DNA of 64,000 nucleotides from Candidatus Daviesbacteria bacterium (lineage in GTDB: Bacteria; Patescibacteriota; Microgenomatia; Daviesbacterales; UBA10151). Within the stretch, counting starts at the first letter, position 1. Every line of letters begins with the position of its first letter. Below, one piece after another: positions 525-1,728 of this stretch. The stretch is from NCBI GenBank assembly GCA_016176335.1, contig JACOXI010000004.1, positions 82,303 to 146,302 of the forward strand, given 5' to 3'. The notes beneath the pieces were generated by a model. That model made no database searches. It was given only the letters and a program-made list of their open reading frames with translations, and had not been told where the DNA came from. The translations under genes and the position numbers were made by a program.

Positions 525-1100
525 ATGTCCAAAAAAGTCTACCGTCTACAGTCTACCGTCTACCGCGGCAGTCGGAAGTCAATGCTTAAGGGTTTTACCC
601 TTGTTGAACTTCTAATAGTGGTAAGTATAATAGCAGTACTTTCTGTTGTTGGACTTGTTTCCTATACAAATTTTCTTTCAAATTCCAGGGATGCCAAAAG
701 GAAAGCGGACTTGTCATTTATCCAAAGTTCATTAGAGCAATTTCATGCTGACCAGAAGTTTTATCCTAAACAGCAGGCAGGGAGAGATTGCGCATCCCTC
801 GTGAACGGAAGACTACACATGATTCTCTGGTCAGAGTGTCCGCTGAAAGATCCTAGCGGTACTAGGACTTATCTTAATAAGGTGCCGAAGGATCCCAGCA
901 GCTCCACCACCTCCCCCTATAACTATAAGTATGTTGGTTTGTACGGTAGTTCTACTACTCCGTGTGACAACAGTACTGTTTTGTGCACCAGTTATTGTTT
1001 ATTTGCTAGGATGGAGAATTCCGTTAGTGCCGTGTCCATTCCCACTCAATGTAGCACTTCTCTGCCCGCCGGACATAATTACGTTGTCACCCCCCCGTAA
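525..1100 (+). CDS. type IV pilin paralogue (long leader MSKKVYRLQSTVYRGSRKSMLKG|FTLVELLIVV)
   Basis: Prepilin cleavage motif KGFTLVELL plus hydrophobic helix. The in-frame ATG at 525 is more plausible than the ORF-track start at 489. The leader contains a heptamer tandem repeat (gtctacc). Confidence 0.7.
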   Translation: MSKKVYRLQSTVYRGSRKSMLKGFTLVELLIVVSIIAVLSVVGLVSYTNFLSNSRDAKRKADLSFIQSSLEQFHADQKFYPKQQAGRDCASLVNGRLHMILWSECPLKDPSGTRTYLNKVPKDPSSSTTSPYNYKYVGLYGSSTTPCDNSTVLCTSYCLFARMENSVSAVSIPTQCSTSLPAGHNYVVTPP

Positions 1101-1152
1101 TGCTGTTTTCTAGACTCTGGTTTGACCACTCAAAATATGTTACTTTTAGGGT

Positions 1153-1728
1153 ATGCTGCTCAAGAAAGTCTACCGCTATTTGCAGAAGTCGGAAGTCGGA
1201 AGTCGGAAGTCAATGCTCAAGGGCTTTACCCTTGTTGAACTGTTGGTGGTAATTTCAATCATGGCCCTTTTGGGTGTTGTTGCCTATGCGAATTTTAAGG
1301 ATTTTGCTCAAGATCAAGTTGTAAACAAGGCCATAGGTCAAATTCAAACAGCCTTCAGACTGGCACAGGCAAATGCAACCAGCGGTGTTACTTGCCTAGA
1401 TCTTGGGGGAGCTGATTGGTCAGTACAGATTAGAACAGACGGGACCAATGTTGATTTAATTTGTGGATCAAGCAATTCTGTGGTTCAAACTACAATTTTG
1501 GAAAATGTTGAGGTTGATTCTGTTGGGGGTTCTGCTTGTGCTCCAGGTTCCACGTCTGCCTTGCCTTTGACTGTTACCTACTCCAAGCTTTCAGGTACAG
1601 TGAAAATAGACGGGTCTGATAATTGTATTGATAATAGTGCCACTGTTTCAGTTAATTTTAAAAACCTAAAAACAAGCAATACTAAAACTTTTACAATCTC
1701 AAAAGGAGGGGCGATAAATGTTCAATAA
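1153..1728 (+). CDS. type IV pilin paralogue (leader ...KVYRYLQKSEVGSRKSMLKG|FTLVELLVV)
   Basis: Leader is near-identical to the 525 gene, then the GFTLVELL motif. The leader contains gaagtcg x3. Confidence 0.7.
   Translation: MLLKKVYRYLQKSEVGSRKSMLKGFTLVELLVVISIMALLGVVAYANFKDFAQDQVVNKAIGQIQTAFRLAQANATSGVTCLDLGGADWSVQIRTDGTNVDLICGSSNSVVQTTILENVEVDSVGGSACAPGSTSALPLTVTYSKLSGTVKIDGSDNCIDNSATVSVNFKNLKTSNTKTFTISKGGAINVQ

Follow-up and report, generated by a model that had tools for sequence, protein, structure and literature searches.

The DNA analysed here is a stretch of 64,000 nucleotides from a Candidatus Daviesbacteria bacterium of the candidate phyla radiation (CPR) (assembly GCA_016176335.1, contig JACOXI010000004.1, positions 82,303 to 146,302 of the forward strand), hereafter called the window. 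A look-up of the window's AtpD by exact sequence gave no hit; AtpD homologues found by similarity place the window in Candidatus Daviesbacteria (Microgenomates, CPR/Patescibacteria), one NCBI protein being 100% identical. It opens with a cluster of type IV pilus genes, several of which carry tandem repeats of seven nucleotides (period-7 arrays) at their 5' ends. The original prediction drew attention to such repeats under the leaders of two pilin genes and proposed that they could act as slipped-strand on/off switches. Our comparison with related genomes favours, with moderate confidence, another reading: the arrays belong to a class of heptamer repeats spread through the lineage, and in the pilin genes they would be translated as part of leaders that are cleaved off, rather than serving as switches.

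Period-7 arrays in the window and in the clade

Tandem arrays of at least three copies were scanned for, and each period was compared with shuffled sequence. At period 7, 18 arrays were found in the window against 0.3 in the shuffles, while period 6 gave 4 against 0.7 and periods 8 to 12 gave essentially none. A chance origin of the period-7 arrays of the window is excluded. Period 7 was enriched in the related Daviesbacteria loci too. Most of these arrays sit outside the pilin cluster.

In the pilin region, arrays were called with Tandem Repeats Finder and further units were added by direct reading of the letters; all of them are given on the + strand. Together these confirmed the heptamer repeats under the leaders of the pilin-like genes P1 (525-1100, +) and P2 (1153-1728, +). 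The P1 leader contains 4.1 copies of GTCTACC (GTCTACC/A, 90% match) at 537-565, to which direct reading adds two imperfect units of the GAAGTCG type (GCAGTCG GAAGTCA) at 568-581. The P2 leader holds a lone GTCTACC unit at 1168-1174, also found by direct reading, and 3.9 copies of GAAGTCG (100% match) at 1185-1211. In the third gene, P3, Tandem Repeats Finder called 4.7 copies of CAATTGA at 1730-1762, which double as a promoter-like TTGACA-17-GACAAT, and 4.4 copies of AATTTCA/AATGTCA at 1759-1789, which include the ATG at 1781. A weak array of AAGAATC (3.4 copies, 2307-2330) straddles the start of P4.

The comparison set consisted of 18 genomes with 358 kb in total, namely the window, the Daviesbacteria loci L001-L015 (fetched via PilM, 58-74% identical), L020 and L021. 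It contained 94 period-7 arrays, about one per 3.8 kb. Inside open reading frames (ORFs) lay 38 of them (about 40%); 29 (about 31%) were at ORF 5' ends, that is, within 100 nt of an ORF start, 25 (about 27%) were intergenic and 2 were at 3' ends. Intergenic arrays were about 3.4-fold enriched over the 8% share of non-ORF sequence. All 29 arrays at ORF 5' ends fell in pilin-like leaders; counted by gene, a 5'-end array was present in 19 of 112 pilin-like ORFs and in 2 of 313 other ORFs (Fisher p = 4e-10). The earlier focus on pilins was thus justified as far as the 5'-end link is concerned, but the repeats are not peculiar to pilin genes, since they are spread window- and clade-wide.

The arrays were 21-43 nt long and had at most about 6 copies, with a second peak at 4-4.5 copies among the perfect ones. 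Dozens of distinct units occurred, although the set was moderately restricted: 362 pairs of near-identical units were counted, compared with 175 for shuffled units. Single-linkage clustering of the units chained 88 of the 94 arrays into one cluster and was uninformative, and the pair statistic was kept. A search of the literature on heptamer and simple sequence repeats in CPR, Patescibacteria and Daviesbacteria found no account of period-7 arrays in CPR.

Two further observations concern arrays near promoters. A heptamer array lies directly upstream of pilM in almost every related locus. Arrays of the TTGACAA or GACAATK type can be read as -35 and -10 boxes (window 1733-1769 and 3844-3887; L005 9956-9998; L007 9950-9988), because three units (21 nt) nearly equal the promoter spacing.

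Probable translation of the pilin arrays as leaders

Read from the upstream start codons, the pilin arrays are in frame with the pilins and give unusually long leaders. From ATG 525, P1 begins MSKKVYRLQSTVYRGSRKSMLKG/FTLVELL (the slash marks the predicted cleavage site), with a leader of 23 aa and the cut predicted after the glycine of codon 591-593; a second in-frame ATG lies at 582. From ATG 1153, P2 begins MLLKKVYRYLQKSEVGSRKSMLKG/FTLVELL, with a leader of 24 aa, a second in-frame ATG at 1213 and codon -1 at 1222. The third pilin had been placed at 1781 and described as preceded by repeats. The arrays are there, but they lie within the ORF opened by ATG 1718 and would probably code for the leader. 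The Shine-Dalgarno sequence of this start, AAGGAGG, occupies 1703-1709 (+), 8 nt upstream. This long form of the pseudopilin gene P3 (1718-2308, +; alternative ATG 1781) reads MFNNQLTIDNGQLTILNFKFQMSNEKG/QSLMELIVV, a leader of 27 aa. The pseudopilin gene P4 (2314-2955, +) reads MNQELSFKKHKKNHHSFA/FTLVEIL, a leader of 18 aa.

The suggestion that the repeats may alter leader length was borne out by the relatives L020 (P1 87% identical) and L021 (P1 57% identical). The P1 leader has 23 aa in the window, 17 aa in L020 (MSKKIYRVGSRKSMLKG/F) and 27 aa in L021 (P0126; MPKKVYSLQSTVYRGSQKSEVGRHKKG/F), and the P2 leader has 24 aa in the window, 15 aa in L020 (MLPRKVYSRKSMLKG/F) and 15 aa in L021 (MLPGEKGFTLVRNAG/F). 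For P3, the 27 aa of the window compare with 10 aa in L020 (MSSKKSSEKG/QSLMELIVV), where the same Shine-Dalgarno sequence precedes the matching ATG. In P1 there is one GTCTACC copy in L020 and four in L021, and GAAGTCG-type units number 2.4 and 3, respectively. When the window was aligned with L020 over 3.8 kb, all 14 internal indels were multiples of 3, and the three largest (18 nt in P1, 27 nt in P2 and 51 nt in P3) fell exactly at the arrays; the 51 extra in-frame nt of P3 are the two arrays that follow ATG 1718. Despite the differences in copy number, the frame from the upstream ATG is retained in the orthologues of L020 and L021, and ATG 1153 with its context TGTTACTTTTAGGGTATGCTGC is conserved in both. 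The P2 leader of L021 (1313-1360), MLPGEKGFTLVRNAG/FTLVELL, also includes a partial duplicate of the cleavage motif GFTLV.

Start codons downstream of the arrays are often missing. Neither P1 nor P2 of L021 has an in-frame internal ATG after its array. In L004, the arrays of one pilin gene follow an ATG with AAGGAGG 7 nt upstream, and no start codon comes after these arrays. Similarly, the P4 orthologue of L007 has a leader, MRKKMLTGYRLQTTVKAEDGRRKTEDKIKNG/F, coded by two heptamer arrays with no start codon after them. Overall, at least 12 of about 21 genes with leader arrays have no ATG downstream of the array.

Start choice was based on the spacing between -10-like hexamers and the ATG; Shine-Dalgarno sequences were largely uninformative, a 4-mer being found in only 6 of the 57 ORFs of the window. 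In the window plus L001-L015, TATAAT-like hexamers had their peak at a distance of 6-8 nt upstream of the ATG (49 of 269 genes), whereas controls gave about 1 per position. This spacing is the signature of leaderless mRNAs, and the genome is accordingly predicted to be largely leaderless. Further starts of leaderless appearance in the window include 36553 and, on the minus strand, 47811, 48875-50167 and 51698-52702. ATG 525 (TTGCGG-17-CAAAAT-7-ATG), ATG 1153 (TGtTACTTT-6-ATG, conserved in L020 and L021) and the P1 ATG of L021 (TTGACT-18-GATAAT-7-ATG) all fit this geometry, while ATG 582 and ATG 1213 have no -10-like hexamer 6-8 nt upstream. Taken together, these patterns suggest that the arrays of P1, P2 and P3 are probably translated from the upstream ATG, as long leaders of 18-27 aa when P4 is included, so that the unusually long leaders claimed for P1 and P2 are probably real.

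Alternatively, the repeats might not be translated at all: the true starts of P1 and P2 would be ATG 582 and ATG 1213, giving the leader MLKG/FTLVELL, and the arrays would lie in a 5' untranslated region or close to the promoter. Several observations speak for such starts or against long leaders. Internal ATGs are shared by the window and L020 in both genes; a GGAAG precedes each by 3 nt, and gene callers have picked them (P0121 and P0122; P0121, with 172 aa, begins MLKG). In the majority of other Daviesbacteria, the orthologues of P1 and P2 show ordinary leaders of 5-9 aa, and the promoter-like hexamers upstream of ATG 525 and ATG 1153 are weak, matching at 4/6 positions each. At L006 4590, L007 4166 and L014 1792, moreover, arrays are clearly intergenic and stand before a normal short leader. 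However, an untranslated region is not expected to hold frame, yet all array indels are multiples of 3, and the upstream ATG with its context is conserved in three species. The genes of L021 (P1 and P2), L004 and L007 that have no downstream start also disagree with it, as do the rarity of Shine-Dalgarno sequences and the dominance of a leaderless geometry that ATG 582 and ATG 1213 do not share. It seems unlikely, then, that the arrays are simply untranslated. Both upstream and internal starts may be in use, in which case this alternative and translation as long leaders would overlap.

The genes concerned have the features expected of pilins and of a pilus locus. P1-P4 all match the Pfam family N_methyl (PF07963) and show the motif G/F(Q)xxxE followed by a hydrophobic helix. 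The machinery is represented by a Peptidase_A24 protein (L016), pilM (window) and T2SSE plus T2SSF (L020). Three of the genes (P1, P2 and P4) have Phe at position +1, and P3 has Gln; we do not class P1-P4 as type IVb pilins, in which residue +1 is not Phe and the mature protein has the type IVb form.

The type IV pilus cluster as a whole covers 1-6199 of the window on the + strand and comprises six pilin-like genes (P0-P5), pilM and, where pilN and pilO would be expected, two further genes. P0 (1-463, +) has lost its 5' end at the window edge and reads ...FLPKTAKNPHG/FTLVELLVV; its orthologues in related loci read MKKFLPKTVNNPKG/FTLVELL. The locus L016, which is 100.000% identical to window 1-4100, has the P0 gene at 2412-2882 and encodes directly upstream of it a 307-aa protein with A24_N_bact and Peptidase_A24 domains, so that by its domains a predicted prepilin peptidase gene adjoins the left edge of the window. 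Beyond P4 lie P5, a PilX-like minor pilin (2989-3843, +; MNEKG/QIILTL, weak PilX_N match), pilM (3888-4925, +; its identical L016 counterpart matches the Pfam families PilM_2 and FtsA), and the pilN-like (4931-5488, +) and pilO-like (5492-6199, +) genes, both labelled from position only and without a Pfam match.

Some features of this and other regions were noted in passing. The window and the identical L016 do not have about 2.9 kb between P5 and pilM (window 3843-3888) that are present in other Daviesbacteria loci (L001-L015, at about 7100-10000); in L004, L005 and L007 this stretch holds more pilin-like genes whose leaders are coded by heptamers. In-frame heptamer arrays are also present in the prepilin peptidase gene, where they separate the A24_N and Peptidase_A24 domains and have units that vary by species (L004 2823-2893; L005 2726-2798; L006 889-929; L001 2969-3035). 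A repeat of another kind, a 24-nt tandem with 6.8 copies at window 36049-36212, codes for (SGSYTPPS)n near the C-terminus of a 527-aa ORF product (34807-36390) without a Pfam match.

Frame preservation, the proposed phase variation and arrays in enzymes

In the neuO gene of E. coli K1 (CUS-3 phage), the AAGACTC repeats in the 5' coding region number between 3 and 53, and the gene is OFF in 65.6% of complete genomes (PMC13001214). By analogy, slipped-strand mispairing in the Daviesbacteria heptamers could shift the frame and toggle single pilins. The two have in common a 7-nt tandem repeat in the 5' coding region (here from ATG 525 to 591 and from ATG 1153 to 1222), a peptide of 7-aa periodicity and a need for frame-keeping copy numbers if the full protein is to be made (PMC13001214). 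The unit is not a multiple of 3, the genes encode a surface structure, arrays at ORF 5' ends are restricted to pilin-like genes, and copy number varies among paralogues and species.

The pattern of variation is nevertheless not that of a switch. Across the 18 genomes, all of the roughly 22 pilin genes with arrays are in frame, in contrast to the OFF majority of neuO, and between species the array indels (18, 27 and 51 nt) all preserve frame. The tracts have 1-4.7 copies here and no more than 6 in the clade and are often imperfect, whereas neuO has 3-53 perfect copies and its switching has been measured; the repeat-coded peptide of the pilins, unlike that of neuO, is in a leader predicted to be removed. 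Repeat number differs between species. Across strains, four independent SRA assemblies that carry P1 were 100.000% identical to the window across the arrays, and no ON/OFF copy-number polymorphism was seen in them or in the related genes; this is a weak test, as the assemblies show zero divergence over 1.7-4.1 kb. The internal ATG of P1 and P2 would blunt any switch, and units containing ATG or GTG offer a start codon in each frame and would therefore buffer slippage, not exploit it. Arrays at 5' ends are confined to pilins, as contingency genes would have them, yet 38 of the 94 arrays lie inside ORFs such as atpD, trmD and recG. Equivalent arrays are in frame within atpD, atpG, trmD, recG and pheT, where slippage would be lethal. 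The proposed on/off switch is thus not supported, and we regard phase variation as highly improbable. Of the two wrong frames that slippage of the P1 array could produce, one would end at the stop codon TAA 586-588. This stop overlaps ATG 582 (ATGCTTAA), an arrangement in which ribosomes might terminate and then reinitiate; it is not found in P2.

The arrays within conserved enzymes provide the comparison cases. On the minus strand, trmD (6201-6941) carries in-frame arrays at 6363-6385 and 6705-6733, and recG carries 4.3 in-frame copies of AGTCGGT at 10955-10984, which on the coding strand read CTACCGA, one mismatch from the pilin unit. On the + strand, atpD contains an inverted pair of in-frame arrays (27593-27655). 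Further in-frame arrays lie in the genes for a class I aminoacyl-tRNA synthetase (18783-18804) and a CobQ-like amidotransferase (48313-48386), in atpG (27142-27170 and 27214-27237) and in pheT (39502-39523).

In AtpD, TrmD and RecG the arrays are placed in variable loops. At one N-terminal beta-barrel site of AtpD, 24 aligned Daviesbacteria proteins have 0-24 extra residues, and the window has a 10-aa insertion relative to PDB 2qe7_D; about one third of the 120 best AtpD homologues exceed the 455-aa baseline. TrmD has two array-bearing loops. In the first, nearly all species have an array, but the unit changes from one species to the next; examples are (GTTTATC)4 for the window, (AAAAGTC)4 for L001, (AAATTCG)4 for L008, (GTCTACA)3 for L003 and (GACAATK)4 for L007. 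In L001 the array was apparently seeded from local conserved sequence (TTAAAAAGTC to (AAAAGTC)4). The RecG loop has (CTACCGA)4 in the window and (CTACCAA)4 in L004; elsewhere it holds unrelated units or small palindromes, and in two species it holds no insert. Where genes could be aligned with those of two close relatives, most of the largest indels are arrays. In the close relative L142, 27 nt of the AtpD array are missing, and long gaps also occur at places of different gene content.

Folding separated the array pairs into two structural classes. The inverted pairs fold as strong hairpins (AtpD z = -4.1, AtpG z = -3.7, with 0 of 200 shuffles as stable); these regions, atpG 27135-27245 and atpD 27585-27665, are where array pairs are wholly or partly missing in L142. 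The pairs of the pilin leaders are not complementary and are less structured than their shuffles (z = +1.5 for P1 and +2.8 for P2), so that a hairpin formed by (GTCTACC)n...(GGAAGTC)m in the pilin leaders was rejected. A known RNA family was rejected as well, since an Rfam scan at gathering scores matched only 9 tRNAs. In other species the array-bearing loops carry small palindromic inserts, with peptides such as IPSRHSERSEESKKK...SSPRNDK and DSRLRGNDK and DNA such as CATTCCCATATGTCAAGTGGGAAT; cases are AtpD P0014, P0017, P0064, P0084 and P0109 (alignment A1, columns 33-70), the RecG loop of L001, L003, L005 and L006, and L142 15508-15531.

Origin of the arrays and comparison with known repeats

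We infer that slippage during replication, or local duplication, in a 7-nt register creates the arrays and drives their turnover, and that the arrays persist where extra sequence is tolerated: in intergenic DNA, in frame in variable surface loops, and in the N-terminal leaders of pilins. P1, P2, P3 and probably P4 would start at the upstream ATG (525, 1153, 1718 and 2314), the arrays being read into the leader of 18-27 aa, and the prepilin peptidase would cut this long leader at G/F or G/Q and leave the mature pilin unaltered. Because a cleaved leader is nearly free in sequence and length, leaders would be the one type of ORF 5' end that gathers arrays, a tolerance that parallels the confinement of the enzyme arrays to variable loops. 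Because 7 and 3 share no factor, only frame-preserving changes (three units, or compensated ones) would survive; therefore leader length would drift among relatives without the gene being switched off. Most of the observations can be explained by slippage or duplication combined with selection that maintains the frame and removes stop codons.

Slippage alone does not account for everything, and what it leaves over tells against so simple an origin. It does not explain the preferred 4-4.5 copies (about 30 nt), the restricted and shared set of units, the presence of unrelated units in the same protein loop of different species, or the recurrence of the pairing (GTCTACN)n plus (GWAGACN)m even in metagenome contigs of high GC. 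The strong concentration in pilin leaders would also fit a family of contingency loci. The four features that slippage does not explain keep a copy-and-paste or dedicated process in play as something that may have contributed. One form of it, which we put forward only tentatively, is an active process working in a 7-nt register, either a peculiarity of polymerase or repair or a set of selfish mini-elements, which writes arrays of about 30 nt into tolerant sites and which the pilus co-opts for leader diversity. If this were true, the arrays would be more than passive microsatellites.

A related possibility is that the arrays, notably the composite (GTCTACC)n-(GGAAGTC)m, are mobile or copied mini-elements that spread by copy-and-paste or gene conversion instead of being made in place. 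Pilin genes that are not orthologous (window P1 and P2, L004, L005, L007) share the composite, as do TrmD loops (L003, L006), a distribution that together with the restricted set of units would be in line with copying. Similarly, P1 and P2 share a near-identical 3' part of the leader only in the lineage of the window and L020, and L021 does not have it; their common leader results from homogenisation or co-insertion of the segment GTCGGAAGTCAATGCTYAAGGG in that lineage. Outside the clade, (GTCTACN)n arrays of 3-19 copies were found in at least 120 metagenome contigs (L022-L141) of 31-71% GC from many environments, and an inverted GWAGACN partner lay within 150 nt in 23 of 128 metagenome cases. 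On the other side, conserved flanks, target duplications and an associated transposase are all missing, some arrays look locally seeded, as in TrmD of L001, and the units are too short to prove homology. We consider spread by copying doubtful. The metagenome contigs also bear on a narrower idea, that (GTCTACN)3 is specific to pilins or to CPR, which was rejected; none of them adjoins a pilin motif.

The arrays may instead have been selected for a function of their own: an unstructured first 50-70 nt of a leaderless mRNA, -35 and -10 boxes, start codons in three frames, leader length or charge, or the binding of a heptamer-specific protein. The 5' regions of P1 and P2 indeed fold poorly: 193 of 200 shuffles for P1, and all 200 for P2, were no less well folded. 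(CAATTGA)n can be read as TTGACA-17-GACAAT, arrays of the GACAATK or TACAATG type recur upstream of pilin genes and pilM in related loci, and units containing ATG or GTG supply the start codon in about 6 genes. A regulatory role has been proposed for heptamers near start codons in Nostoc and Beggiatoaceae (bioRxiv 10.1101/2022.06.06.494920; PMC4679880). With such a function, however, it is hard to reconcile that units differ at orthologous sites, that close relatives without the arrays show no visible compensation (L020), and that the arrays within enzyme loops have no obvious regulatory role. A selected function of this kind therefore appears quite improbable.

Cyanobacterial heptamer repeats, which are described mainly as intergenic, are known as short tandemly repeated repetitive (STRR) sequences, a name that reportedly goes back, with the consensus sequences, to Mazel in 1990. 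In Nostoc, (TTCAAAA)3 and (GACYAAT)8 lie near start codons (bioRxiv 10.1101/2022.06.06.494920). Like the STRR sequences, the Daviesbacteria arrays are dispersed and short, many adjoin or overlap start codons, and GACYAAT resembles the GACAATK found here; unlike them, they belong to a different phylum, and 40% are in frame inside conserved genes and 31% in pilin leaders. Direct repeats of TAACTGA occur in marine Beggiatoaceae, cyanobacteria and Bacteroidetes in 2-6 copies and at dozens to hundreds per genome (MacGregor 2015, PMC4679880). They too stand mostly just upstream of start codons, at genes with few canonical ribosome-binding sites (PMC4679880), but they consist of one dominant unit with stops in all frames and are kept out of coding interiors, whereas the Daviesbacteria units are many, stop-free and tolerated in ORFs. 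The lineage therefore resembles a dispersed heptamer family in having many short 7-nt arrays per genome and differs from one in that no single unit or few units are conserved. In the account of the survey of Mrazek et al. (2007) given in PMC4679880, period 7 was the most abundant among repeats of 5-11 nt in many genomes, a 7-nt polymerase contact was proposed, and repeats in coding regions had units in multiples of three. As far as that account goes, the lineage is unlike the surveyed repeats, as its coding sequence often contains a unit indivisible by three.

Two other comparisons concern the placement of the arrays and the leaders themselves. Rickettsia palindromic elements are said, after Ogata and colleagues in 2000, to form a defined class of elements, 100-150 bp in length, that have entered conserved protein genes in frame where insertions are tolerated. 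In-frame insertion at such sites is shared by AtpD, TrmD and RecG, and the AtpD and AtpG pairs form hairpins; the arrays here are only 21-43 nt long, however, with varied units in place of a defined consensus, and the pilin-leader pairs form no hairpins. The type IVb pilins TcpA and BfpA have long, positively charged leaders of 15-30 aa that are cut by prepilin peptidase. If the upstream ATGs are used, the leaders described here would likewise be long (18-27 aa), positively charged and removed by the peptidase. They differ in that G/FTLVELL with Phe at +1 is of the type IVa or pseudopilin kind, and in that the extra length comes from repeat DNA and varies among close relatives.

Coding DNA normally excludes repeats with a unit length not divisible by three, or else such repeats mark phase-variable genes. 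The CPR lineage studied here has about one heptamer array per 4 kb, many of them in frame in genes such as those for ATP synthase, TrmD, RecG and an aminoacyl-tRNA synthetase, and the repeats of the pilin genes are a single aspect of a tendency to heptamer repeats found throughout the lineage. We infer the long leaders and the variation in leader length from comparison of related loci. For annotation, this means that the start codons of Daviesbacteria pilins are probably called too far downstream, and that odd low-complexity inserts in conserved CPR proteins originate at the DNA level. For evolution, the orthologous TrmD, RecG and AtpD loops with their species-specific units form a natural series for the origin and turnover of period-7 repeats, which is also a standing question for cyanobacterial STRR sequences and other bacterial heptamers. 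For the biology of the pilus, the prepilin peptidases of this clade would have to process leaders that range from 5 to more than 30 residues.

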